64,000 bases of DNA, taken from Actinomycetota bacterium. Lineage in GTDB: Bacteria; Actinomycetota; CADDZG01; JAHWKV01. The stretch is from contig JBHELT010000074.1 in the NCBI GenBank assembly GCA_046262935.1, forward strand, positions 13,251 to 77,250, given 5' to 3'. Below are positions 5,731 to 63,008 of the stretch, one piece after another. How positions within the stretch are numbered: position 1 is the first letter of the stretch; each line of letters begins with the position of its first letter. The translations under genes and the position numbers were made by a program. Under the pieces are notes generated by a model that saw only the letters and a program-made list of their open reading frames with translations, was not told the DNA's origin and did not search any database.

Positions 5731-7344
5731 TTATCCGACCCATTCGCTGAGCATCGCCTTAAGTTGAGCATGATGTTCGGAAGTGGCGAAATCCAAAAGA
5801 TCATTCGAAGGCAGCAGATGTTCGGCAACGTCGCCATGGCGACGCAGATACGCGGCCGGGTGGATGTTACCGTTGTCGTCGGTCTCAACCGCCACCGCGA
5901 TGCCATCGGGGCCAGAGGAGTCTACGAAGTCAGCGAGGGGCAGGATGCCTTGATCCGTAAGCCCAGATGTTTCATCAAAATAGACGACTCTGGCCAGATA
6001 GGAGGGCTGATTCCAAAGCTCGGGGGCCCGCGTTACCTCATCGACTAGGTAGCCGACGAGCGAAGCGGGCTCGATGACCGGCCGTTCGAGTTTGACCCCG
6101 AATCTTGTCTCGGCCAGATGTCGAGCTAGCACCCCGGCGTTATAGCGGAAGCCATGAACAGCTGCGGAGTTGCTGGGGATACCGTACTTCTTGAGACCGA
6201 TCGAACCCTGGGTTATGGAACCAGCGAAATAGATACCATCGATCGTGGAACTCTCGAAATATGGAGTTTGAGCTGGTAAGCGGCCTTGGAAGAAAGTCTT
6301 GACCCCTAGCGCGGGTAGGTCAACCATCGGCGTTGAGAACCCGGTCGCTGCGATCACTTCGTCTACATCGAAAGTGTGGTCTCCCGGATTGGTCGTGCCC
6401 ATAGCGTGCACGCGGTACCCATCGCCGTTGCGCTCGATGGAGTCGGTCGCAGCATCGAGAACGATGTTGCCTCCACCAAGAACGTGATCTTCGTATGGCT
6501 GCAGATAGCGGGCCCTCGCGGCGGCCGTTGAATGCACCATCACCGATATCCGTGCAGGGCGGGGGGATGCGAGGATTATCTGGCGGGCCACGGGCAACAG
6601 TCCATCTGCCACCTCGAAACCAGAATTGCGCTTGCCCAGTATGAAGACGCTTCGCCCTGCGTAGCGTTCGATCGACTTTGTTTCAACGTAATGCGGAACT
6701 TGTTCGATGCCTTTGATCGAAGGCTTCCACGGTGTCGTTGTTCCCACCGCGACGATCATGACTTGCGCATGGTATTCGCCATCGTTGGTACCAACAACGA
6801 ACCCATCATCGACCTTCTTGGTTGACTCCCATCTGCAACCGAACCGGATCTTGATGTTCGCCTTCTCGACGAAAGTTCTGATGCCGAGCTCCATTTCAGG
6901 GCGCGACGGGAAATAGGAGGACCCGTCCATCAATGGTGGCAGGATGGAACTGGCCTCGGGCTCATCTGCGATGAGACTGTTCCAATCGAACTTCTGATAA
7001 GCGCGGGTACCGCGCGGCGCAGGTGCGTGGGGTTTGGTCCAAGAGATCAGTCGCTGGAACAGCGGGTAAAGCTGGAACATCCCACCTGGCTTATCGTCGG
7101 ACGAGATAACGGCGTGTTCAACTCCATATCTCCGCAGGAAATAGGAGGTTTGTATCGCTCCCGGCCCGCTGCCGATGATGATCGCCGGATACCTACCCGG
7201 AGGGAAGGGCCGCTCGGTCTCGCTCAGTTGCGCCACTGCAATGATCTGTGCAAGCGCGAAGCTTCGGCCTGCAGCATGCGATACATGACCTTCGGATGTG
7301 CTTCGAGGAATCCCTGCAGATCTGACGCTGGCAGGACCAAACAT
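5731..7344 (-). CDS. FAD/NAD(P)-binding oxidoreductase (flavin-containing monooxygenase-like, two dinucleotide-binding motifs)
   Basis: IIGSGPGAIQ (GxGxxG) near the N-terminus and a second ILGKRNSGFEVADGL motif; 537 aa. Confidence 0.6.
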   Translation of the reverse strand: MFGPASVRSAGIPRSTSEGHVSHAAGRSFALAQIIAVAQLSETERPFPPGRYPAIIIGSGPGAIQTSYFLRRYGVEHAVISSDDKPGGMFQLYPLFQRLISWTKPHAPAPRGTRAYQKFDWNSLIADEPEASSILPPLMDGSSYFPSRPEMELGIRTFVEKANIKIRFGCRWESTKKVDDGFVVGTNDGEYHAQVMIVAVGTTTPWKPSIKGIEQVPHYVETKSIERYAGRSVFILGKRNSGFEVADGLLPVARQIILASPRPARISVMVHSTAAARARYLQPYEDHVLGGGNIVLDAATDSIERNGDGYRVHAMGTTNPGDHTFDVDEVIAATGFSTPMVDLPALGVKTFFQGRLPAQTPYFESSTIDGIYFAGSITQGSIGLKKYGIPSNSAAVHGFRYNAGVLARHLAETRFGVKLERPVIEPASLVGYLVDEVTRAPELWNQPSYLARVVYFDETSGLTDQGILPLADFVDSSGPDGIAVAVETDDNGNIHPAAYLRRHGDVAEHLLPSNDLLDFATSEHHAQLKAMLSEWVG

Positions 7345-7652
7345 CGAAGAGCCGTTCTTGCCACGATGTCGGCAGTGGGCGATGACCCAAGCAGGATGGA
7401 GATCTCGCCAAAGAAGTCGCCGCGGGACAAACGCGCAACCTGTTGCTCGTCTAGCTGAACATCTGCTTCGCCTTCGATGATCAGATAGAAGCCTGCACCC
7501 GAGAATCCTTTACGCAGAACACGTTGCCCGGCTGTGAAGACATCCTCTTCGAAAATATGGGCAGCAGCCTCGAGTTGGGGTCGTGAAAGATCTGCGAACA
7601 GAGCGAGTTGCGCGATCGCATCGATGACATCGCTAAGGTCAGTGGCAGTCAT
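7224..7652 (-). CDS. stand-alone cyclic-nucleotide-binding (cNMP/CAP-effector) domain protein, 142 aa
   Basis: FGEISILLGSSPTADIVARTALRCLVL and RKGFSGAGFYLIIEGEADV match the cNMP-binding β-roll. Start set to MTATDLS (ATG at 7650-7652); the longer tracked ORF overlaps the upstream gene. Confidence 0.7.
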   Translation of the reverse strand: MTATDLSDVIDAIAQLALFADLSRPQLEAAAHIFEEDVFTAGQRVLRKGFSGAGFYLIIEGEADVQLDEQQVARLSRGDFFGEISILLGSSPTADIVARTALRCLVLPASDLQGFLEAHPKVMYRMLQAEASRLHRSLQWRN

Positions 7653-7723
7653 GTTCCCTTTCTGAAATTCCTCTGCTTGCCCCCGGGCCCCACGCAGTAA
7701 GGGTCCGGAGTTGATGCTGAAGT

Positions 7724-9298
7724 CTATTCGCTGGCGGTTGGGCTCGTTGGTCGGTAGCGGAAGTAGCCCCAGAAGCCGAATGAGAAGATTGCAAAACCCA
7801 GGAACAATCCAACCACCACGGCGGTCGAGATGGTCCGCGAGATGCTTATGTAACCGGTGGCCGGATCTAGCAAGACATGGATGAAACCGAAAAGGCTGAC
7901 ACCGAACAAGATGCCCCACAGCAGACGGTTCCAGACCGCGAGTTTCTGTCCGTCGAGGAAATGAAGGGGCAAAAGACCAAACACGAGTCCCTCTAAACCA
8001 GCAACGAATGTTGCCGCAAGCAGCGCGTCGAGAGCCAGCACACCGAACGACGCACCCGGGATCTGTGCGAGTGCCTTCACGGGGATCCAGGCGAACCAGG
8101 CCGCGAGACTGACGATGAACACCGCGATCGACGCGATCGCCACGGACAGTCCTTCGAACTTCTTTGAAAGCCGACCCCTGAATGCCGCCGCTGCCACAAG
8201 CCCATACAGATACCCAGGTTGGAAATCCAAGAGCCTCGAAAGTGCGACGCATAAAACAGCCACGATCAATGAACCAGGGAATACGCGGAGATAGACCTTG
8301 GTTTTGGCGATCTTCTGGATGTACAAGCCAGAGACCAATTCGCCGATGAATGTCATCAACACGATCGCGCCGATGATGCCGACCAACAGAGACAACGATG
8401 CCTTGTTCAAGCCGAAGTCCGGCGATAGGAAGCCATACAGTGCTGCCGTGATGAGGCTCAGCAAGGCGAACCCCTTGTATGACCGCGACAGTTTTCGAAG
8501 AGTGTCTTTGGCCTTCTTCGCCCCGGCCCGGGTGCGTCGGAACCAACCGTGGATCTCGTCGTAATGCTCTTCGTAGGTGCTGTTGAAGATCTGGGCCGGG
8601 AACGCGAGCAGCAGGGTGAGCAGGAGCGCGAGTAGTGAACTCCTTCCAAGGGAACGCGCGTCGGTCTTCACCGTAGATGGGTCCCTGACCGACGAAACGA
8701 ACCGCGATCGGTCCGGATTGCCGTGAGTTGGCGGTGGCGATGACGCGACCCGGGGCGACGGCGAAGGACTGGGACTAGGCGATGGCAAGGGACTCGGTGA
8801 CGGACTAGGTGATGGCGACGGGCTCGGCGATGGCGACGGACTGGGCCGTGGGCGCCGCGAAGGGCTGGGGCTCGGAGTCACCTGTGGCGAAGAAGCTGGT
8901 GCGCTGACCGTCAGGAAGAATCGCGCGATATCCGCGCTGGGGCAGTTGCCTTCGCAATGCTCTATAACCAGAACGTAATCTCCTGGAGTTGCCGAGGCAT
9001 CAACAGTGATGATCATCGTGTCGCTCCAACCCTTGGGAGTGACATCGTTCCTATTGGGACATTGGAAATCTCTAAATGTGACGACTATCAGCGAGGAACT
9101 TGGGGACATCGATTGCAGGTCGAGGCAGCCTGGACTCACTCCGTTACTCACTCGCACATCTACGGTCAAACTGCTGCTTGGAGTCGTTGAGCCGGATGAT
9201 TGAGCGAGCGTTACAGTCGCCCAGGCCGAGTCGACCCCAAGCAAGATCACAGCGATCAGCACGAAGGCAACCAGCGCCCCCGCTGAGATCTTTCTCAT
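7724..9298 (-). CDS. secreted/membrane protein: signal peptide, ~130-aa extracellular Cys-containing domain, (Pro-Ser)n linker, C-terminal polytopic membrane domain
   Basis: N-terminal hydrophobic signal MRKISAGALVAFVLIAVILLG; PSPSPS repeat; at least 6 predicted TM helices C-terminally; no catalytic motif recognised. Confidence 0.6.
   Translation of the reverse strand: MRKISAGALVAFVLIAVILLGVDSAWATVTLAQSSGSTTPSSSLTVDVRVSNGVSPGCLDLQSMSPSSSLIVVTFRDFQCPNRNDVTPKGWSDTMIITVDASATPGDYVLVIEHCEGNCPSADIARFFLTVSAPASSPQVTPSPSPSRRPRPSPSPSPSPSPSPSPSPSPLPSPSPSPSPSPRVASSPPPTHGNPDRSRFVSSVRDPSTVKTDARSLGRSSLLALLLTLLLAFPAQIFNSTYEEHYDEIHGWFRRTRAGAKKAKDTLRKLSRSYKGFALLSLITAALYGFLSPDFGLNKASLSLLVGIIGAIVLMTFIGELVSGLYIQKIAKTKVYLRVFPGSLIVAVLCVALSRLLDFQPGYLYGLVAAAAFRGRLSKKFEGLSVAIASIAVFIVSLAAWFAWIPVKALAQIPGASFGVLALDALLAATFVAGLEGLVFGLLPLHFLDGQKLAVWNRLLWGILFGVSLFGFIHVLLDPATGYISISRTISTAVVVGLFLGFAIFSFGFWGYFRYRPTSPTASE
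8745..8885. repeat. coding tandem repeat (GAYGGN/GGCGAY units) encoding the (Pro-Ser)n linker of the membrane protein
   Basis: Visible periodicity gatggcgacgg / gactgggac in the sequence. Confidence 0.6.
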
Positions 9299-12213: not shown

Positions 12214-12499
12214 CGCCGCTCAGTGTAGCGTCGGCCGCGCCGGGGGCCCCAAACGCGCCAGGGGCCCCGGACGCGCCAGAGCCCCCAGAAAGGGGCCCTG
12301 ACACTTGTATCTCGAAACGTGCAGATGGGTTTAGCGATCTAGGATCGATAGGCCGGTGGACCACTTCGGCCCCCATCTAGCACGGTGTCCTGAGATGGAT
12401 TCCTTAGAGGTCAGGCACCTCGCGGGTCCAGTGGGTACTGTTATGCAAAACTGGATCACCTCCCTTCTCGCGTGCATCCAGTTTCGCATAGCCCGCAAG

Positions 12500-12580
12500 C
12501 ATTGCGGGGGTTCGGGGGTGTAGCAGCCACCGTTCGGTTAGGCCCCTCCCGCGCCAGAAGCCCCGATGAAACCCAGAATC
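12500..12580 (-). repeat. single copy (reverse orientation) of the dispersed ~79-bp hairpin repeat family
   Basis: gggggttcgggggtgtagcagccaccgt...cgcgccagaagc is the reverse complement of the units at 27.6 kb and 38.2 kb. Confidence 0.7.
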
Positions 12581-19238: not shown

Positions 19239-20375
19239 ATGAAGATCGCCGACGTAAAAGCTTGGATATTTCACTCACCATTGGATTCGCCCTTCAAGCC
19301 GAGTTGGGTGCCCGGATACTCATCGATGATGAGCAGTGCCGTTATCTACGAACTCACCACAGACACCGGTATCTCGGGGATCGCCGGTGGCAACGCATTC
19401 GCGGATGAAGCGAAAGGCCCTGTCAATCTTCTGCGCGCTTACCTTTTGGGCATCGACGTCGACGATTCCGAACAGATCACGTCGCGGCTGGGGGCCCTGA
19501 ACCGTGTCCTCGGTATGCGCTCTTGGTTCATAGAAACTGCCTTTTGGGATATCCGAGGTAAGGCCTCCGGCAGATCCATCGCCGCCACGCTGGGAGCCAA
19601 CACCGATCGCGTAAGGGCTTATGCATCGACGGGCGAGCTTCGTGAACCCGAAGAAGCCGCGTCGCATGCTAAGAACATCGTGGCTCAGGGCTTCAAAGGG
19701 ATAAAGATCCGAACCCGCCACGACGAGCTCGACAAGGACATAGCGATGGTCCAAGCGGTTCGCGAAGCGGTCGGTGACACCGTGGCTGTGATGTGCGATG
19801 CGAATCAGGCTTGGCGCGTAGATGCCTTTGGTATCGGGCCAAGATGGGACTTAGAGCGTGCTGCCAAGACGGCCGAGGCGATGGAGACATACAACGTCGC
19901 ATGGCTAGAAGAACCCCTGGATATGTTCGATCTAAAAGGCTACGCCGAACTTCGTAAACGCAGCAGCACTCCGATCGCGGCCGGGGAACTTCACGGAGAA
20001 CCTTCGCTGGTTGGATTGCTTATCGACGCAGGTGGAGTTGACATTGTTCAACCAGACCTTGTTTTCACGGGCGGGATAAGTGGTGCTTGGGGCCTTGCAC
20101 AGAAGGCATTGTCGAACGGCCTGCGATTCTCACCACATACATGGTCGAACGGGCTTGGACTTGCGGCCAACCTGCACCTGGCTGTGGCAGCACCCAATTG
20201 TGATTGGCTCGAATTTCCTTACGACCCACCAGGCTGGGTCCCCGAACACCGCGACGCGATGATCGACGAAGTTTTCGCTATCGACGACAACGGCGACGTA
20301 GTGCTGCCAACGGCCCCTGGTCTTGGGGTCGACATCAACCGCGAGAAACTGGAAACGTTCGCAGTAAGTATCTGA
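19239..20375 (+). CDS. enolase-superfamily enzyme (mandelate racemase/muconate lactonizing enzyme family)
   Basis: KIRTRHDELDKDIAMVQAVREAVG, metal-ligand region VMCDANQAW, AWLEEPLD. Confidence 0.8.
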   Translation: MKIADVKAWIFHSPLDSPFKPSWVPGYSSMMSSAVIYELTTDTGISGIAGGNAFADEAKGPVNLLRAYLLGIDVDDSEQITSRLGALNRVLGMRSWFIETAFWDIRGKASGRSIAATLGANTDRVRAYASTGELREPEEAASHAKNIVAQGFKGIKIRTRHDELDKDIAMVQAVREAVGDTVAVMCDANQAWRVDAFGIGPRWDLERAAKTAEAMETYNVAWLEEPLDMFDLKGYAELRKRSSTPIAAGELHGEPSLVGLLIDAGGVDIVQPDLVFTGGISGAWGLAQKALSNGLRFSPHTWSNGLGLAANLHLAVAAPNCDWLEFPYDPPGWVPEHRDAMIDEVFAIDDNGDVVLPTAPGLGVDINREKLETFAVSI

Positions 20376-20378
20376 TCA

Positions 20379-20420
20379 ATCTCGGGGGTTTAGCAGCTCC
20401 TGGCGCGGGAGGATTGGCGT
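20379..20420 (+). repeat. partial (5' half) copy of the dispersed hairpin repeat family
   Basis: atctcgggggtttagcagctcctggcgcggg matches the conserved left arm of the repeat. Confidence 0.5.
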
Positions 20421-20437: not shown

Positions 20438-20451
20438 ACACTAATTAGTGT
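20438..20451. promoter_or_regulatory. perfect 14-bp palindrome ACACTAATTAGTGT 27 bp upstream of marR (candidate MarR operator)
   Basis: Exact dyad symmetry in an AT-rich context immediately upstream of the MarR-family gene. Confidence 0.45.
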
Positions 20452-20477: not shown

Positions 20478-20921
20478 GTGGCGAACCAAACGATCACCCA
20501 AGTCGATCCAGATCTGGTTTCTGGACTCCGGCTTATCTTGATGCGACTCGCTCGCAGACTCCGCCAGCAGGCCGAGGGTGAAGTGACCCCTTCGATGCTC
20601 TCGGCCCTTTCGAGTATCGAACGTCAAGGTCCCCTCACGCTCGGAGATCTCGCGGCAGTGGAGAGGATCTCGGCCCCAACGATGACAACCATCATCAGCC
20701 GCTTGCTCGAGGCCGGTCTAATAGTCAAACAGGTCGATGCGAATGACCGACGGTTCGCTCGAGTGGGGCTGAGCCCCGAAGGCAAGCGCTACGTCACCAA
20801 GAGCCGATCCCGCAAGGACGCATACCTCGCGCACAGGCTTGCCGGGCTAACTCCCGAGCAGCTCAAGGTGCTTGGGCAAGCGGTCACCATCCTCGAATCC
20901 ATCCTCGAGGAACAGCCATGA
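20478..20921 (+). CDS. MarR-family transcriptional regulator
   Basis: Winged-helix region LGDLAAVERISAPTMTTIISRLLEAGLIVKQVDANDRRFARVGLSPEG; overlaps the downstream MFS gene by 4 nt. Confidence 0.85.
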   Translation: MANQTITQVDPDLVSGLRLILMRLARRLRQQAEGEVTPSMLSALSSIERQGPLTLGDLAAVERISAPTMTTIISRLLEAGLIVKQVDANDRRFARVGLSPEGKRYVTKSRSRKDAYLAHRLAGLTPEQLKVLGQAVTILESILEEQP

Positions 20922-27218: not shown

Positions 27219-27632
27219 ATGGCAAAACCAACGATCGGGGAAAGAACTGAAGTCCTGGCGACGATGCCCTTGTTCGCCGGCTTGTCTCAACGTTCTTTAC
27301 AGCGGATCTTAAAAGTAGCCAACGAGTTCGAGGCTCCCGCCGGCCAGATCATGGTGCAGCCTGGCATGCCAGGTTCGGGGATGTTCGTAATCGAGGAGGG
27401 CACGGTTGTGGCTCGCACCTCGCGCCGCGAGATCGAAATCGGTCCTGGCGAATGCTTCGGTGAGTTGGCGCTGCTGACCGACAGGGTCCGAACCGCAAGG
27501 GTTCAGGCTAAAACCGCGGTGACCTGCCTTGCCATCTCTCGCAGCGATTTCATCAAACTGCTGGAGACCGAACCCAAGATCGCTGTGCACCTACTCGAGA
27601 TCCTCGCGGGGCGCTTGGCCGACGCCAACTGA
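27219..27632 (+). CDS. stand-alone cyclic-nucleotide-binding domain protein, 137 aa (second paralog)
   Basis: FGELALLTDRVRTARVQAKTAVTCLAI and GQIMVQPGMPGSGMFVIEEGTV match the cNMP-binding fold. Confidence 0.7.
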   Translation: MAKPTIGERTEVLATMPLFAGLSQRSLQRILKVANEFEAPAGQIMVQPGMPGSGMFVIEEGTVVARTSRREIEIGPGECFGELALLTDRVRTARVQAKTAVTCLAISRSDFIKLLETEPKIAVHLLEILAGRLADAN

Positions 27633-27641
27633 TCGGTTTTA

Positions 27642-27795
27642 CCTCGGGGGCTTAGCAGCTTCTGGCGCGCGATGGTCATAACGGGACGGTGGCTGCTACA
27701 CCCCCGAACCCCCGGTTCGACCTCGGGGGTTTCGCAGCTTCTGGCGCGCGATGGTCATAACGGGACGGTGGCTGCTACACCCCCGAACCCCCGGT
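27642..27795 (+). repeat. two tandem copies (~79-bp period) of the dispersed hairpin repeat
   Basis: cctcggggg(c/t)tt(a/c)gcagcttctggcgcgcgatggtcataacgggacggtggctgctacacccccgaacccccggtt occurs twice back-to-back. Confidence 0.85.
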
Positions 27796-28772
27796 TAGGG
27801 CTTCGTCCAAAGCGATAAGGCGAAGGATCCTGCGTCGTCGGTCCACCAAGCCTGCTGTTTCGATCCCACAGACCCCAGTTCATCCTCGACGCCTTCGCGG
27901 CGGAACTTGGTACTGATCTCGGTTCGGATCTCTTCGCCCTCTTCGACATCGAACACCAGGTCCACTTTATGAAGGGTCACACGCTGTCGGCCCACTGACC
28001 GCAGTCTCATCTCGATCCATTCGTTGGCCTCGTCGTAGAAAGCAACATGTTCGAAACACCTTGGAACGAAGTCTCCGGCGAGCCTTGCGTTGATGACCTC
28101 GAGGATGTTGCGATTGAACATCGCGGTTATGCCCTTCGAATCGTTGTAAGCAGCATCCAACACGGCGGGATCCTTTACCAGGTCCGTTCCGAGTAGGAAA
28201 GAATCGCCCGATCGCATATTGGATGTGAGGGCTGCGAGGAACTGCTTGCGCTGGGTGGGATCGAGATTACCGATCGTCGACCCGATGAACGCGATCATCC
28301 GCCTGCCTTCGACCGGCAGGTCGCCGAGGTTGCGCTCGAAGTCCCCAACGACCGCGGTCACCGAAACTCCTTCGTAGCGCGACATGATCGAGGTTGCTGC
28401 GGCTGTCAGTGTGACCTCGTCGACGTCGAGGGGGATGAATCTTTCAAGACGCCCTGCATGCGAAAACGCATCCAAGATGATCGCCGATTTCTCCGACGTC
28501 CCCGATCCCAATTCGACGATGGTGTCCGCCCCCGTCAAACGAACGATATCGGCGGCATGGGCTTGCAAGATCTGCTTCTCAGCCCTCGTAAGGTAGTACT
28601 CGTCGAGCCGGGTGATCTCGTCGAATAGTTGCGAACCCTTCTCGTCGTAGAACCATTTGGATGGGATAGATCGGGGTTGGGTCGACAATCCTAGGGTCGC
28701 GTCGAGCTCCAGAGCTTTCTGCATGTCTTCAGGTGTTAGATGACGTTCAACAACGAACCCCGGCTCATGCAT
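27795..28772 (-). CDS. egtD: L-histidine N(alpha)-methyltransferase EgtD (ergothioneine biosynthesis)
   Basis: Near-collinear match by memory to mycobacterial EgtD: PSKWFYDEKGSQLFDEITRLDEYY, IVELGSGTSEKS, AFIGSTIGNL, LLGTDLVKD, FNRNILEVINARL, WWTDDAGSFALSL. Confidence 0.9.
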   Translation of the reverse strand: MHEPGFVVERHLTPEDMQKALELDATLGLSTQPRSIPSKWFYDEKGSQLFDEITRLDEYYLTRAEKQILQAHAADIVRLTGADTIVELGSGTSEKSAIILDAFSHAGRLERFIPLDVDEVTLTAAATSIMSRYEGVSVTAVVGDFERNLGDLPVEGRRMIAFIGSTIGNLDPTQRKQFLAALTSNMRSGDSFLLGTDLVKDPAVLDAAYNDSKGITAMFNRNILEVINARLAGDFVPRCFEHVAFYDEANEWIEMRLRSVGRQRVTLHKVDLVFDVEEGEEIRTEISTKFRREGVEDELGSVGSKQQAWWTDDAGSFALSLWTKP

Positions 28773-30057
28773 CGCGAGCGCACCTGAATCCGCAGAAGAT
28801 CTGCCTTCTTATCGGAAAGTCCCAGTTCCTGAAAGTGTTGCGGATCGCGGTTGGATGAGTTGCCCAAGAGCCACCGCGAAGTACCTTGTAGCCGCGCCCG
28901 TAAAACACCTCGGAGTACTCACGGTACGGGAAAGAGTTGAATCCCGGGTATGGCTCGAAGGCAGTGGACGTCCACTCCCACACATCGCCGATCATCTGGT
29001 GACATCCAACGGGGCTCACGCCACCGGGAAAAGTTCCAATCGGAGTTGGTCTGAAGCGAACTCCACCAACGTTGGCCGTTTCCTCGGTCGGCGCATCGTC
29101 ACCCCATGGGAAGCGCTTCTTCGACTTGGTCGCCGGGTCCCATGAAGCCGCCTTCTCCCACTCGGCTTCCGTTGGCAAACGCTTGCCCGCCCAATGCGCA
29201 TAAGCGTTCGCCTCATGCCACGAAACATGTTCTACAGGTTCGGCGTCAACGATCGGTTCGACGCGTCCATACCTAAGGCGCGCCCACTGACCTCCTGCTT
29301 GTTTACTCCAGAACAAGGGCGACTCCGCCGATTCTTTAGCGCGCCATTCCCAACCCTCGGGGGTCCAGAATCTTCGGTCAAAATAACCCCCAGCCAGCAT
29401 GAAGTCCATATAGGCGCGGTTGGTTACCGGAGCGGTGTCTATGTAGAACGGCGGCAGATCGACAGTATGTTGCGGTCGTTCATTGTCGTAAGCCCACGGC
29501 TCGAGATCGGTTCCCATCTGGAAGGGGCCACCCTCGACGTATACCTGTTGACCCACATCGACCGGTGCCCGCGGGAGAGCGCGCTGCTTTACCGGATATT
29601 CGGCTCCGCTGCGTAGCTGCAGGGTCGCTAGCATGGTCTCGTCATGCTGGTGCTCATGTTGCACGACCATGCCATAAACGAAACCTTCGGCGAGCAATGG
29701 GTTGGACGGGTCGAATTCGGTCCGGTCGAGGACATCGAAGACTTGGCCGCGCACGTCGGTTATGTATGACCTGGATTCGTGTGGGCCAAGCAGCCTCAGT
29801 TTGGTGCGTTCCTTGCGCGCATGCTTGAAGGCATCGTATATATCGTCGAGTTCAGGGTCCGACGCGGGGACCCCTGCGACCATCCTCAGGAGCCATATCT
29901 CTTCGTAGTTGCCAACGTGCGCAAGGTCCCATACCAGTGGCGACATGATCGGAGAATGTTGCTTGATGAGGTCCTTGTCGTCGACGGGTGCCAGCAAACC
30001 GAATGACCGCTTTCGGACACCGTCGAGTTCGTCTGCGATCAATTGCTTTAGATCCAT
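28765..30057 (-). CDS. egtB: ergothioneine biosynthesis sulfoxide synthase EgtB (DinB-like + FGE-sulfatase domains)
   Basis: DinB-like iron motif HEHQHDETM, C-terminal FGE-type region LRGGSWATHP; overlaps egtD by 8 nt. Start trimmed to MDLKQLIADE (ATG at 30055-30057). Confidence 0.85.
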   Translation of the reverse strand: MDLKQLIADELDGVRKRSFGLLAPVDDKDLIKQHSPIMSPLVWDLAHVGNYEEIWLLRMVAGVPASDPELDDIYDAFKHARKERTKLRLLGPHESRSYITDVRGQVFDVLDRTEFDPSNPLLAEGFVYGMVVQHEHQHDETMLATLQLRSGAEYPVKQRALPRAPVDVGQQVYVEGGPFQMGTDLEPWAYDNERPQHTVDLPPFYIDTAPVTNRAYMDFMLAGGYFDRRFWTPEGWEWRAKESAESPLFWSKQAGGQWARLRYGRVEPIVDAEPVEHVSWHEANAYAHWAGKRLPTEAEWEKAASWDPATKSKKRFPWGDDAPTEETANVGGVRFRPTPIGTFPGGVSPVGCHQMIGDVWEWTSTAFEPYPGFNSFPYREYSEVFYGRGYKVLRGGSWATHPTAIRNTFRNWDFPIRRQIFCGFRCARDA

Positions 30058-31322
30058 GCGGGGGCCCCAACGCTCGATTCGAAAGGTAGGTATCGGCCGG
30101 TCTTCTCGAACGCTTCCAGCCTCTCGTCTGCGGGCATGCGAGAGCGGAATGTGAATCTGTCGGCGAACTCGGCCAGAGCGGCCAGATCGGTTGCGCCAAC
30201 ATCCATGCGTTGTGCGCCATCGAGAGCCGCCTGCATGCAAGTGATCGCCGACTCAGCAATCGCTGTATCAGCAAGTCCATCGACGGCAGCGTCTTTCCAC
30301 ATGTTTGCGGTCGCGGCGGTAGCGCGCTCGGCCCTCTCACCCGCTTCAACGTCGTGCAGAAGAACAACCCACGCGGTCACCGCGGCCCGCCAGTACGGCT
30401 CTGGGAGAGCGTCGATCATCCTGATCTCCAACCATGCCTTCGGTCGTATCGGCGGAAAAAGTGTGGTCAAGTGGTAATCGAGATCATCGGGAGTTGGAAA
30501 GCCCGTCTCGTGACCATGTTGTATCCAGTTCTTGAAAGTGAAGTTTCGTCCCGCGTGCCCGAAACGCTCTCCATGTGGCCCGATCAATATCACTTGAGCA
30601 TTCAAGGCGTAGCGGGCCCAAACGCTAACTGGATCGTCTGATATCTCAAGCGGCGCAGTCCGTGACGGATCCATACCCTGCCATATCGCCAGGCGATTCG
30701 AAGCAACCGCATTCGGTTTCCCATCGATGATGGGTGAATCGGCGAATATCGCCGACATGACTGGACCCACAAGATGAGCGATGCGGAACTGTTCAACCCG
30801 GCGGGACGAGACATCTATGTTGATCTGAAGCGCCGCGGTGTCGCGCATCATCCTTCGACCGAGAGGGCCGAAGGAATCGAAACACTCCTCCATCCGGTCG
30901 TATCGAGGGGTGTGAATTACGCGCTCGTTTCGCCTCAGAGGATCCACACCGACGCTGACCATTTCGATCCCACTCGCTGACAGCAGGCCTGCGATATGTG
31001 ACCGGTCGGTGGCTGCCGCTGCGGTGGCCCTATCGACACTTCCCCTAACGAGGGTGCTGAGCTCGACCTGCCCGCCCGGCTCATAGGTGATGGCGCCACC
31101 CGCAGGGAGCGGTCCCGCCGATCCTAGTATCTGTCTGACGAGGTCGTGGGGTACCGGGGCGGTCGGGTCCCCCGCCGTGTAAACCAGCCACTCCATCTCG
31201 AGCCCAACCCTGGGCGAGTCTGTGGGGACCAAGCACGTCTCCGCCAACCGGCGATAAACGTCCTTTTCAGCGAGGCTTCTGTGGTTTGAGGGCATCGGAT
31301 TGGCCTTGACGAAACAGTCCAA
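30048..31322 (-). CDS. egtA: glutamate–cysteine ligase family 2 protein EgtA
   Basis: GCS2-type motifs GLEMEWLVY and ALQINIDV; ~424 aa; translationally coupled to egtB. Confidence 0.7.
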   Translation of the reverse strand: MDCFVKANPMPSNHRSLAEKDVYRRLAETCLVPTDSPRVGLEMEWLVYTAGDPTAPVPHDLVRQILGSAGPLPAGGAITYEPGGQVELSTLVRGSVDRATAAAATDRSHIAGLLSASGIEMVSVGVDPLRRNERVIHTPRYDRMEECFDSFGPLGRRMMRDTAALQINIDVSSRRVEQFRIAHLVGPVMSAIFADSPIIDGKPNAVASNRLAIWQGMDPSRTAPLEISDDPVSVWARYALNAQVILIGPHGERFGHAGRNFTFKNWIQHGHETGFPTPDDLDYHLTTLFPPIRPKAWLEIRMIDALPEPYWRAAVTAWVVLLHDVEAGERAERATAATANMWKDAAVDGLADTAIAESAITCMQAALDGAQRMDVGATDLAALAEFADRFTFRSRMPADERLEAFEKTGRYLPFESSVGAPAWI

Positions 31323-31403
31323 GAACGATACCCGATTCCCTGGTTTAGCAAGGAGCAGTCCAAAGGCGCACAGTTACCCGCCGGATGGGTTAGAACATCA
31401 TCG

Positions 31404-32192
31404 ATGGAAAAGACCAATCGAAGACGCAAGGGCCGGATCCTTGAACGCAGTAGCGAACATGCCGAAACGTCCGACGAAAAACTGCTTGAGCGTCGAGACC
31501 CGACCTTCACCGACACAGATCCATGGCGAGCGCTTCGGATACTCTCGGAATTCGTAGAAGGGTTCCAAGCGTTCGCCCACATCCCGCTAGCGATCAGTGT
31601 CTTCGGCTCGGCCCGCGTTGTCGAACAGGACCCGTATTACGACGTCGCTCGCCGGGTCGGAGCTGCCCTGGCGGACGCCGGCTACGCAGTGATCACTGGC
31701 GGTGGCCCTGGGATCATGGAGGCAGCCAACAAGGGCTGCAAGGAGGCCGGGGGTCTCTCCATCGGATGCAACATCGAACTTCCCTTCGAACAGAAGATGA
31801 ACGCATATGTCGATCTTGGGGTCGACTTCAATTACTTCTTCGCTCGAAAGATGATGTTCGTTAAGTACTCAGAAGGATTCGTGGTGTTCCCGGGCGGATA
31901 CGGAACCTTGGACGAGTTGTTCGAAGCGGTGACCCTTATCCAAACCGGCAAGGTTTATCACTTCCCGGTCATATTGTTCGGTTCGGCTTATTGGGCTGGT
32001 CTGATCGATTGGCTGAAGGACAAGCCGCTCGGTGAGGGCAAGATCTACGCCGAAGACCTCGAATATCTGCGCATCACCGACGATGTCGCCGAAGTTGTAG
32101 CGACCATCGATGAAGCACTCGCGGCCAGGGCTCATGAGACGACGACCGAAACGCCCGACCACGTAAGGCCCGACAAATCAGATGCGCAATAG
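31404..32192 (+). CDS. LOG-family (TIGR00730) Rossmann-fold nucleotide-binding protein / cytokinin riboside 5'-monophosphate phosphoribohydrolase-like
   Basis: GGGPGIMEAANKG and PGGYGTLDELFE are hallmark LOG motifs. Confidence 0.8.
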   Translation: MEKTNRRRKGRILERSSEHAETSDEKLLERRDPTFTDTDPWRALRILSEFVEGFQAFAHIPLAISVFGSARVVEQDPYYDVARRVGAALADAGYAVITGGGPGIMEAANKGCKEAGGLSIGCNIELPFEQKMNAYVDLGVDFNYFFARKMMFVKYSEGFVVFPGGYGTLDELFEAVTLIQTGKVYHFPVILFGSAYWAGLIDWLKDKPLGEGKIYAEDLEYLRITDDVAEVVATIDEALAARAHETTTETPDHVRPDKSDAQ

Positions 32193-32334
32193 ATCCGCGT
32201 CCGGCGGCGCATAAGGTGTAGGCGGCGTTACCGTCCAATCCGAACGTTGATACGTCCTGGACCGCGAAATTGCTGGAACGGAATTAAAGAAGAGGCGCCC
32301 ACGAGGGACGCCTCTTCCTTATTCTTCGAAATGA

Positions 32335-33684
32335 TTAGTCGAACAAGTATCCGTCCCATCCGGCACCGAACAGGTCACGTTCGGCAACTTCGACCGCTGC
32401 GATCTTTTCGGCCCCCGGCATCGAAACGACCACTCTTGCGGAACCTGCAGCCAGTGCCCGTCTCCTGCGGCTCGACCTCTCCAGAGCTACACCAGCGATC
32501 AGCAGCATCAGTGCGAGTTCGAGTTGCAGCTTGGCATCGATCCCGGTGAACGGAAGTGCCCTTGTGAATGAGACACCGAGCACCGAGGTTGGCTTTGGAC
32601 TCTTGGTGAAACTCTCACCAAGAACGCTGGTGCAATCAGTGATTTGATCGAACACCTTGGTTGAAGAGTTCCCGCCCGGGTTGACCGATGATGCAGAGAT
32701 CGAGTGGGGACCATCATTGGCGAAGGTCTCCGCTATCGTCTGCGATTGGCCAGCTGCCAGGGTTATCGTTTGGGCGACGCCATCCAGCGAGACCGTGAAT
32801 GTGCGGGATGCCGCCGAGTTGCTGTTCAACAGCAGGACGTTAGCCGTGCGGCTCGTGCAGCTCACAGATCCGATCGAAAGCGTCGAGCCGAACGTGGGCG
32901 TTTCGTGCGAGCAATCCAGCTTCGGGAACGTCTTCGACTTCGTGTTACCGCTAGTTGTAACGGTGATCGTGTGCGAAGCATCTGATGGCACGGTGAAAGT
33001 CATAGTCCTGGATGCACCTGCCGCTAGCGAAACCGTGCTTGCACTCTCCCAGTCCGGAGTGATGGTGAAAGAACGAGTTGTCGCTGCGTTCTCATTCTTG
33101 AAAGTCACCGAAAGCGTCCTGCTGTCGCAATCGACCGAGCCGATGGAAATCTTGGAACCCTTCACCTCCGAAGTTGATGGCGAAGAACATCCAGTGTGAG
33201 CAGGGTTCGTCCTTGCTATCCCATGGTTTCCGTCACATTCGTAACCATTGTTGTGATCACTGGGGCCTGGGTATTGGCCTGGAGGGTTCTTGTCATCAGC
33301 GTTGCCAACACAACCCGCGCAGGGTTTGCCGGTTGAAATCCCACCGCCGTTGCCATTACCGGACTGGCCATCGGGGCATGTGTTCGTGTAGGGCCCCGCA
33401 GGAGTTGAGTTGGCGCCGCTGCCCGTCCCGCTGTTGCCCGACGGATCACCATTGCACTTGGTGGTATCGCTGTGATCGGAAGACGAGGATGCGGATGTCT
33501 GCGACGAAAGCGCATCGCTAGCGGACAGGGTGGTGTCTTGGGACCGGTGGCCCTGGGACTTGTCCGAGCGGTGCTCGCTGCTCGAGCCACCCGCGGCGGC
33601 GAACCCTTGAAAGCCCACCGAGATCATCAGGATCAGTGCCAATACTGTTGCGGCGCCGACTTTGCGTAGAAGCTGTACGAGCAT
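32335..33684 (-). CDS. cell-surface protein with signal peptide, Ser/Thr/Gly-rich region, two tandem ~90-aa domain repeats and an LPFTG sortase-type sorting signal
   Basis: N-terminal signal MLVQLLRKVGAATVLALILMISVGFQGFAAAGG; paired repeats IGSVDCDSRT.../IGSVSCTSRT... with LAAGxSxT; C-terminal LPFTG followed by a hydrophobic stretch and RRRR. Confidence 0.6.
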   Translation of the reverse strand: MLVQLLRKVGAATVLALILMISVGFQGFAAAGGSSSEHRSDKSQGHRSQDTTLSASDALSSQTSASSSSDHSDTTKCNGDPSGNSGTGSGANSTPAGPYTNTCPDGQSGNGNGGGISTGKPCAGCVGNADDKNPPGQYPGPSDHNNGYECDGNHGIARTNPAHTGCSSPSTSEVKGSKISIGSVDCDSRTLSVTFKNENAATTRSFTITPDWESASTVSLAAGASRTMTFTVPSDASHTITVTTSGNTKSKTFPKLDCSHETPTFGSTLSIGSVSCTSRTANVLLLNSNSAASRTFTVSLDGVAQTITLAAGQSQTIAETFANDGPHSISASSVNPGGNSSTKVFDQITDCTSVLGESFTKSPKPTSVLGVSFTRALPFTGIDAKLQLELALMLLIAGVALERSSRRRRALAAGSARVVVSMPGAEKIAAVEVAERDLFGAGWDGYLFD

Positions 33685-34009
33685 CTGGTCTCCCCTGTCC
33701 TAGAGCGGCCGGGTTCACCATTAAGCTCGCCGCTGCCCATTAGGTGACCAGATTCAGGCAGCGGGTCAAAGCTTCCGCGGTAACTTCCTTACGAAGCACC
33801 AACGTATTTCGTGCACTCATGTTACGGCCTCGACCACGCTAAGTGCAATAGTTATCTCGTAGAGCGTTTGGGTTAGTCTGCCCTTGAGCACAATCTTGGA
33901 CCTATTTGTGCTGTTCGCGGTGATTTCAGCGATTCCGAAAAGATTTTCGTGCGCCCTCTGCCTGCAACCCGACCACGCTTCGAGAGCGCTAAGAAACACG
34001 CGCCAGGGA

Positions 34010-38161: not shown

Positions 38162-38402
38162 ACCCCGGTTTGATCTCGGGGGTTTCGCAGCTTCTGGCGC
38201 GCCTTGGTCTTAACCGGACGGTAGTTGCTACACCCCCGAACCCCCCGTTTGATCTCGGGGGTTTCGCAGCTTCTGGCGCGCCGTGGTCTTAACCGGACGG
38301 TAGTTGCTACACCCCCGAACCCCCCGTTTGATCTCGGGGGTTTCGCAGCTTCTGGCGCGCCTTGGTCTTAAATGAACAGGGCTGCTACACCCCGAACCCC
38401 CC
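38162..38402 (+). repeat. three tandem copies (~80-bp period) of the dispersed hairpin repeat, in the divergent glpX / MFS intergenic region
   Basis: gatctcgggggtttcgcagcttctggcgcgcc(t/g)tggtcttaaccggacggtagttgctacacccccgaaccccccgttt ×3; the last copy has a diverged middle. Confidence 0.85.
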
Positions 38403-62681: not shown

Positions 62682-63008
62682 CTATCTTTTCGCTGCGGAC
62701 TTTCTTCTAGTGGTGGTCTTCCTTTTGGCCGCAGTCTTACGTTTCGCTGCAGGCTTCCGCTTTGCAGTTGCCTTACGTTTCGCTGCTGGCTTCCGCTTTG
62801 CAGTTGCTTTCTTTGCAGCTGTCTTGCGCTTCGCGGCTGGCTTGCGTTTTGCAGTTGCCTTCCGCTTTGCCGTCGACTTTCTAGCCGTCGACTTTTTAGC
62901 TGAGCTCTTGCGCTTGGCGGTTGCGCGCTTCGCGGGAGCCTTTGCAGTGGCTTTGCGCGTTGACTTGCGCTTCGCCGTCGACTTCTTGGCTGCTGGCATA
63001 AGTGACAC
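62682..63008 (-). CDS. lysine/alanine-rich histone-like DNA-binding protein (AKRK/PAAKRK tandem repeats; Hc1 / HupB-tail-like)
   Basis: 108 aa, ~40% Lys/Arg, repeats TAKRKPAAKRK; GC3-rich codons on the minus strand versus T-rich third positions on the antisense strand. Confidence 0.6.
   Translation of the reverse strand: MSLMPAAKKSTAKRKSTRKATAKAPAKRATAKRKSSAKKSTARKSTAKRKATAKRKPAAKRKTAAKKATAKRKPAAKRKATAKRKPAAKRKTAAKRKTTTRRKSAAKR
62700..63000. repeat. coding tandem repeat (~30–33-nt period) underlying the AKRK-repeat protein
   Basis: Repeated gcagttgccttacgtttcgctgctggcttccgctttgca units. Confidence 0.6.

Follow-up and report, generated by a model that had tools for sequence, protein, structure and literature searches.

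A 77-79-bp, imperfectly palindromic tandem repeat dispersed among intergenic spaces of an uncultured soil actinobacterial lineage

Introduction

What kind of element is a sequence of ~79 bp that recurs, in tandem and as single pieces, in several intergenic spaces of one actinobacterial genome? A sequence-only reading of the window, by which we mean the whole stretch of 64,000 nt that was analyzed, had described such a dispersed hairpin repeat and had likened it to REPs and MITEs, leaving room for a structured RNA family. Here the repeat is followed over ~81 kb by adding flanks from a sibling assembly. We favor, with a probability of about 60%, an interspersed repeat of the REP/BIME/REPIN kind that is non-coding, is restricted to this lineage, gains and loses units locally and has dispersed by a step that we infer.

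The repeat and its loci

In the window, Tandem Repeats Finder detects a period of 79 at 27634-27796 (2.1 copies, 95% matches) and at 38163-38402 (3.1 copies, 93% matches), and a period of 18 at 12236-12287 (2.9 copies). An unfiltered profile search (nhmmer --max) finds full units at 27636-27713, 27715-27792, 38168-38245, 38247-38324 and 38326-38401, together with incomplete copies at 12506-12577 (minus strand) and, as a left half, at 20375-20412. Beyond these five full and two incomplete copies the profile finds none in the window. A left-arm 28-mer (up to 3 mismatches) has 6 sites in the window against a mean of 0.00 in 100 dinucleotide shuffles, and a right-arm 19-mer has 6 against 0.02. The 77-79-bp tandem repeat is confirmed as real and non-random. 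The two copies at 27.6 kb and three at 38.2 kb of a dispersed ~79-bp unit, as first described, agree with both Tandem Repeats Finder and the profile, and shuffles expect none. The half-copy placed near 20379-20420 was likewise recovered, and the related sequence noticed at 12230-12300 corresponds to the 18-bp array, which resembles the left-arm core. The reverse copy at 12.5 kb is indeed on the minus strand, but it is a partial unit, not a complete one, and overlaps the end of a dienelactone-hydrolase (DLH) gene. The loci are as follows.

Array A, 27634..27796, plus strand: two tandem 79-bp units (A1 27635-27713, A2 27714-27792) and the GGTT of another unit
Array B, 38163..38402, plus strand: three tandem units of 79, 79 and 78 bp, the centre of B3 diverged
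Array C, 12505..12577, minus strand: one partial unit of the 77-bp C/E subtype, beginning inside the left arm
Remnant D, 20375..20412, plus strand: left half of a unit (linker, left arm and beginning of the centre), the similarity being gone after ~20412
Locus E, L042 5019-5172 (sibling assembly): two 77-bp units and the start of a third, flanked by a response-regulator gene on one side and otsA on the other
Mini-array, 12236..12287, minus strand: 18-bp x 2.9, reading GGGGCYCCTGGCGCG plus 3 nt on the minus strand

Locus E comes from a second assembly of the same species, GCA_020201635.1, which covers most of the window at 99.8-100% nucleotide identity (~99.9%) and reaches ~9 kb further to the left and ~8 kb further to the right. 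All four repeat loci of the window are also present in it, and the fifth lies just past the right end of the window. Wherever the two assemblies can be compared, a locus that is filled in one is filled in the other; some arrays differ in size. The tally is five loci and ~12 units in ~81 kb of genome, in arrays of 0.5-3 units. Because only these five loci are known, the genome-wide abundance of the repeat is an extrapolation.

Anatomy of the unit

The unit is 77-79 bp long, imperfectly palindromic and non-coding. It reads, in order, a linker GGTTYGAYC, a left arm TCGGGGGTTTCGCAGC, a centre, a right arm GCTGCTACACCCCCGA and a tail ACCCCC, so that successive units are joined by a linker of ~13 nt, AACCCCC-GGTTYGAYC. 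The centre, TTCTGGCGCG-N8-10-TAAC-N3-ACGG-N4, is ~31 nt long and asymmetric. It had been taken as variable, which holds in part: within it CTTCTGGCGCG, TAAC and ACGG are invariant or nearly so. Two subtypes are distinguished by locus, of 79 bp (A, B) and 77 bp (C, E). Units are 87-99% identical inside an array compared to 75-91% across arrays. The arrays are not CRISPR arrays; the entire 79-bp period repeats, centre included, and the centres are specific to the locus, not to the unit.

The arms TCGGGGGTTTCGCAGC and GCTGCTACACCCCCGA are G/C-rich inverted repeats with 82% complementarity over 17 nt, or 71% when extended to 31 nt. Over nine distinct units, the pairing (8+6+3 bp) holds in 91.5% of cells, compared to 20-53% when the partner is slid. 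Alternative partners for the G5 arm are the second C5 run in its own unit and each of the two C5 runs in the unit before it. The inverted repeat behind the long imperfect hairpin that had been proposed is thus present, but its folding energy is not clearly better than that of shuffled sequence. A REP is recognized as a short palindrome that has a conserved GTAG-type tetranucleotide on its 5' side. Neither arm, TCGGGGGTTTCGCAGC or GCTGCTACACCCCCGA, is self-complementary or a REP palindrome, and a GTAG on the minus strand (GGTGTAGCAGC) sits within the stem, not 5' of any REP hairpin. An integron attC site, with its RYYYAAC/GTTRRRY cores, was also considered and rejected: the TAAC lies in the loop rather than at the ends, and the cores fit only two of the five subtypes.

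The array boundaries fall at different positions of the unit in each locus. No target-site duplications, and no terminal inverted repeats bounded by unique DNA, were found at the array flanks. Since, in addition, every comparable locus is occupied in both assemblies, the MITE label of the sequence-only reading is not established. The differing array ends fit recombination or decay as well as transposition.

Gene contexts

The gene contexts first assigned to the repeat, namely convergent ends at 27.6 kb, divergent starts at 38.2 kb and a gene 3' end at 12.5 kb, proved right, and their diversity speaks, as had been argued, against a regulator specific to one gene. Array A takes up the entire 162-bp gap between the convergent stop codons of a cNMP-binding gene (TGA 27630-27632, plus strand) and egtD (TAA 27795-27797, minus strand). 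The C-terminus of EgtD beside it has its native length, as judged from a relative. This egtD belongs to an ergothioneine cluster at 27795-32200 (minus strand) that encodes an EgtD-type histidine methyltransferase, an EgtB-like DinB_2/FGE-sulfatase protein and an EgtA-like GCS2 protein; array A adjoins the stop codon of the last gene of the cluster.

The start codons of glpX (38147, minus) and of an MFS transporter gene (38421, plus) diverge from a 273-bp spacer, of which array B makes up 240 bp; the array has the same sequence in the sibling assembly. The GlpX of this locus matches, at 100% identity, a protein annotated 'MAG: Actinomycetota bacterium'. Directly before the GTG start of the MFS gene lies ATCTGCGACAATCA, which is conserved in a relative (L008) and which, we infer, resembles the -10 box of a leaderless transcript. 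Array B stands just upstream of two divergent, apparently leaderless genes.

Array C encodes the last eight residues of DLH, GASGAGGA, and its TAA stop (12538-12540). DLH homologues stop 2-5 residues past a conserved ...ILGFI motif, where the window DLH goes on with GASGAGGA*. The comparison with homologues indicates that the C-terminal tail and stop codon of DLH have been replaced by array C. Overlap with coding sequence, which the sequence-only reading had named as the kind of result that would count against it, is marginal and restricted to this eight-codon tail; the other loci lie outside genes. The 18-bp mini-array lies ~23 nt upstream of an AhpC/redoxin gene (start 12213), and its GGGGCYCCTGGCGCG is identical to the start of array C (GGGGCTTCTGGCGCG) at 12-14 of 15 positions. 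It is probably a local derivative of the left-arm core. In the ~330-bp spacer between array C and the mini-array (12290-12500, minus strand), a strong Shine-Dalgarno-like AAGGGAGGTGATC is followed by an open frame of ~42 codons, read by eye, which could be an unannotated small protein or a leader upstream of the AhpC/redoxin-DsbD operon.

Remnant D starts at the TGA stop (20373-20375) of an MR_MLE-family gene, has a MarR gene downstream and does not differ in the sibling assembly. The MarR-family gene (20478-20921) is preceded at ~27 bp by a perfect palindrome of 14 bp, ACACTAATTAGTGT, which lies at 20438-20451 just past the remnant and is probably that gene's own operator. At locus E, the TGA stop of the response regulator falls within the linker sequence TTTGATCTCAGGGG.

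In all four loci with an upstream gene end (those of the cNMP gene, the MR_MLE gene, the response regulator and DLH), the first unit overlaps the stop codon or lies within 0-3 nt of it. The neighbors of the repeat (glpX, the MFS transporter, egtD, the cNMP-binding protein, DLH, the MR_MLE enzyme, otsA) share no functional theme. A fixed TGATC target was considered as the reason for the placement. At A, D and E the motif does occur near or in the first unit. Its distance from the G5 arm differs in all three, however, and with 310 sites in 64 kb it is common, so that no target is defined. A simpler reading is that intergenic spaces are short and that only insertions at gene ends survive.

Array size in the two assemblies

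Two arrays differ in size between the assemblies. Array A has three units in the sibling and two in the window, the additional unit being one base off A2. Array C has 2.7 units in the sibling and 0.7 in the window, a difference of exactly 154 bp, or 2x77; the window copy is the first, partial unit of the array. Such differences between ~99.9%-identical assemblies fit the REP-like, recombinogenic character that had been suggested for the repeat. They represent either genuine VNTR-type variation or assembly collapse of near-identical repeats: they run in the direction expected of collapse, and collapse is possible at C because the repeated stretch there is an identical 55-mer. A second site of copy-number difference between the assemblies is found in a minus-strand gene at 62716-62900. 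It has in-frame 18/36-bp tandem repeats and encodes a very basic Lys/Ala-rich protein (...AKRKPAAKRKATAKRKPAAKRKTAAKRK...) that resembles histone H1 or an HU tail; here the window copy is the longer one, by ~90 bp (5 x 18).

Distribution outside the species

In four relatives (L008, L009, L043, L044), whose GlpX proteins are 81-91% identical, no copy of the repeat was found in ~54 kb, and the orthologous glpX-MFS spacer lacks the array. This spacer is too diverged in the relatives to give an exact empty site. When 185,579 species genomes, mycobacteria included, were scanned for exact or gapped patterns, six matches came up, each of them due to chance in unrelated coding DNA. The right-arm 18-mer gave 30 matches in JGI metagenome contigs, all unrelated (reverse complements of a tRNA gene, and coding DNA). 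Two scans of IMG/VR viral contigs gave 0 and 1, the sole match (L046) being a 24-nt coincidence in a gene for a small membrane protein. By blastn, plasmids and phages contain no relative of the repeat, and translations of the arrays in all frames have no match in a database of 5.8 billion protein sequences. These outside searches were exact-word or high-identity searches, which diverged relatives could escape. The family is clearly not widespread, and the lack of a detectable relative in the 185,579 species genomes or the JGI metagenomes suggests that it is young or fast-evolving. With no related sequence in these large collections and nothing in Rfam (below), the impression that the family has not been named was borne out.

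Signals and alternative explanations

At the gathering threshold, Rfam has no match at the repeats, the best sub-threshold scores being 12-20 bits against thresholds of 37-200, and at E <= 10 it returns generic hairpin noise alone. The junction CCCGG-TTCGACC-TCGGG in array A looks like the T-arm of a tRNA; ARAGORN is negative, the motif is not kept in B, C and E, and the idea was rejected. A search for sigma-70 promoters and intrinsic U-tract terminators at arrays A and B gave nothing above shuffles.

The hairpin could nevertheless act in cis as structured RNA, in a 3' UTR or in the 5' leader of the MFS gene, for example as a U-tract-independent terminator, a block to 3' exonucleases or a processing site. 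At the co-directional loci C, D and E the unit is in sense orientation to the flanking genes, starting from the upstream stop codon, and single units have predicted folds of -28 to -36 kcal/mol. In the inner helix, paired in 96% of cases, four of the nine pairs vary only by one-sided G-U/A-U changes. RNA of the sense strand tolerates these, but RNA of the opposite strand would have A-C mismatches in their place, a weak hint of tolerance at the RNA level. However, three sense orientations out of three have a chance probability of p = 0.125, and the z-scores of the folds against shuffles range from +1.05 to -2.13, that is, the folds are no better than composition predicts. The nine distinct units contain no compensatory (two-sided) change in the hairpin pairs, their covariation score equals that of shuffles (RNAalifold covariation term = +0.5), and in the C/E units a G of the outer stem has become A with no compensation. 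Array B, moreover, lies between two start codons, where a terminator or 3' stabilizer would be needless. Since compensatory change is missing and the fold z-scores are weak, the RNA family envisaged by the sequence-only reading is not supported, and we consider a cis-acting RNA unlikely. The sequence could also matter as DNA, its centre or left-arm core, GGGG..CTTCTGGCGCG, being repeated as a binding site that a nucleoid-associated protein or a global regulator recognizes. The near invariance of CTTCTGGCGCG is consistent with this, as is the separate amplification of a shortened form, GGGGCYCCTGGCGCG, in the 18-bp x3 array just upstream of the AhpC/redoxin gene. Array B, as read from the sequence, would also immediately precede the -10-like elements of the two divergent genes that it separates. 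But most copies are at 3' ends and not at promoters, the neighboring genes have no functional theme in common, whole 79-bp units are conserved, linkers included, rather than one site, and close relatives with the same genes do without the family. Binding-site arrays are therefore quite improbable as an explanation.

The phylum brings to mind another possibility, a minisatellite of the MIRU type, i.e. a mobile tandem unit between cistrons whose small ORF is translationally coupled to its neighbors. MIRUs are found in the same phylum, Actinomycetota, and type I is ~77 bp, close to the 77-79 bp seen here. Like MIRUs, the present arrays are intergenic and, in co-directional contexts, in sense orientation; their unit number differs between the two assemblies, by true variation or by collapse; upstream stops overlap the unit, and at locus E the stop lies within TTGA, where a TTG start could overlap the TGA stop. 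Translation argues otherwise. Three-frame translations of the five loci reveal no ORF that bridges the flanking genes, so the coupling architecture of MIRUs is not found. Stops occur inside the unit, and neither 77 nor 79 is divisible by 3, so that each unit is read in a different frame from the one before it; the unit has no consistent ORF, and the sibling annotation calls no genes across the arrays. In addition, the unit is palindromic, arrays are also found between convergent and divergent genes, and none of the genomes searched has a relative. The MIRU reading is largely refuted by the translations and is very unlikely. Finally, the source is a metagenome-assembled genome (MAG) and the array sizes differ as collapse would make them differ, which raises the question of an assembly or chimera artefact. 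The arrays recur, however, at the same five loci in two independent assemblies, where the flanking genes are intact and the variants are specific to the locus, and an artefact is extremely improbable.

Other features of the region

The Rfam search also found a cyclic-di-GMP-II riboswitch aptamer (RF01786) at 33698-33785 on the minus strand, scoring 55.5 bits against a gathering threshold of 53.5 (E = 1.5e-9). The ORF that directly follows it (32335-33684, minus) codes for 449 aa and has no Pfam domain. A cyclic-di-GMP-II riboswitch that controls an uncharacterized protein in an uncultured member of the Actinomycetota may be worth a separate look. At 8799-8846 an 18-bp x 2.7 tandem repeat, which gives a (Pro-Ser)n run in one minus-strand frame, falls in long ORFs without Pfam domains (7724-9298 and 7224-8546, minus). 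Immediately to the left of the window start, positions 1-8200 of L047 in the sibling assembly encode the methylase and specificity subunits of a type I R-M system, a SIR2_2-domain protein, a PIN-domain protein, RadC and a phage-type integrase. The region is a probable integrated defense or mobile island, and it contains no copies of the repeat.

Discussion

A REP/BIME/REPIN-kind repeat, the explanation favored here, would have spread and been shaped in three steps. A unit would arrive at each site by a transposition- or recombination-type event, probably catalyzed in trans. REPINs, which are moved by RAYT transposases, offer an analogy for such catalysis; among the genes called in the ~81 kb there is no transposase or RAYT (PF01797, Y1). 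Once in place, an array would gain or lose units locally, whether by slippage during replication or by unequal recombination among its units, and would be homogenized. Selection would leave insertions only in the short spaces at gene ends, and for this reason the arrays would abut or slightly overlap stop codons and one would lie upstream of two divergent genes. A cellular role, such as a 3' hairpin that protects or ends transcripts, would be secondary.

A bolder version can be proposed, in which the repeats form a genome-wide, actively dispersing REPIN-like population, driven by a putative single-copy transposase, with strand-specific insertion next to TGATC-like stop-codon sequences, and in which the arrays supply gene-end hairpins or promoter-proximal DNA. 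We regard it as speculative and rather unlikely. If true, it would extend the "nested replicators" of the REPIN-RAYT type to another phylum; to our knowledge, they are essentially undescribed in Actinomycetota.

The repeat is otherwise a fairly ordinary kind of bacterial "junk" repeat, uncatalogued in this lineage, and it leaves the current understanding of bacterial repeats unchallenged. What is gained is the record of an interspersed repeat family, not catalogued before, from an uncultured lineage of soil actinobacteria. As arrays differ between near-identical genomes or assemblies, they are useful as VNTR-like strain markers and as a warning about the quality of MAG assembly. The repeat may also have small effects on host gene expression, given that array C replaces the tail and stop of DLH and array B fills almost all of the promoter region of glpX and the transporter gene.

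Comparison with known systems

REPINs are REP doublets that form hairpins, are mobilized by RAYTs and occur in Pseudomonas and Enterobacteria. They number tens to hundreds of copies over a genome, in which a cognate RAYT gene is flanked by the repeats. In Pseudomonas, tandem clusters of near-identical REPINs, including their flanks, have been documented (PMC3116915). The present repeat is like REPINs (70-110 bp) in being extragenic, in having two inverted arms around a less-conserved spacer that form a long hairpin, and in being lineage-confined and vertically inherited. Unlike REPINs, its arms lack REP palindromes and its copies are mostly in tandem arrays, where REPINs are mostly single; it is found in another phylum and has no sequence similarity to them. 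With such arms, and with no Y1 transposase among the genes of the ~81 kb, membership in the REPIN-RAYT system is not claimed.

In E. coli, BIME-2 elements reportedly consist, according to Gilson, Bachellier and colleagues, of alternating inverted REP/PU units with fixed linkers, arranged in tandem at gene 3' ends. The protein partners of BIMEs are gyrase, IHF and Pol I. The resemblance is in an iterated pair of inverted arms with two fixed linkers (roughly 80-100 bp) and in an intergenic position, often just past stop codons; copy number varies in BIME-2, and here unit number differs between the assemblies, by true variation or by collapse. However, each BIME arm is itself a palindrome of 35-40 nt, the arrays here, of at most three units, are much shorter, and the sequences are not similar.

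MIRUs enter operons at start codons, and their ORF is coupled to neighboring genes through an overlap of -4 (PMC12548453). The likeness to them is that of an actinobacterial, intergenic tandem unit of ~50-100 bp that overlaps flanking gene ends, with differences in copy number between strains in the case of MIRU (PMC12548453). Unlike MIRUs, the present repeat has no coupled ORF, is palindromic and is also found between convergent and divergent genes. A MITE of Porphyromonas gingivalis reportedly contains an internal minisatellite (PMC4596501). The two are alike in being small and non-coding and in combining inverted-repeat character with tandem iteration (PMC4596501). They differ in that the whole unit and not an internal segment is iterated here, and that terminal inverted repeats bounded by target-site duplications are not found. 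Among known systems, the closest in architecture are REPINs with their ordered tandem clusters (PMC3116915) and BIME-2 arrays; the phylum and the VNTR-like behavior recall MIRUs.
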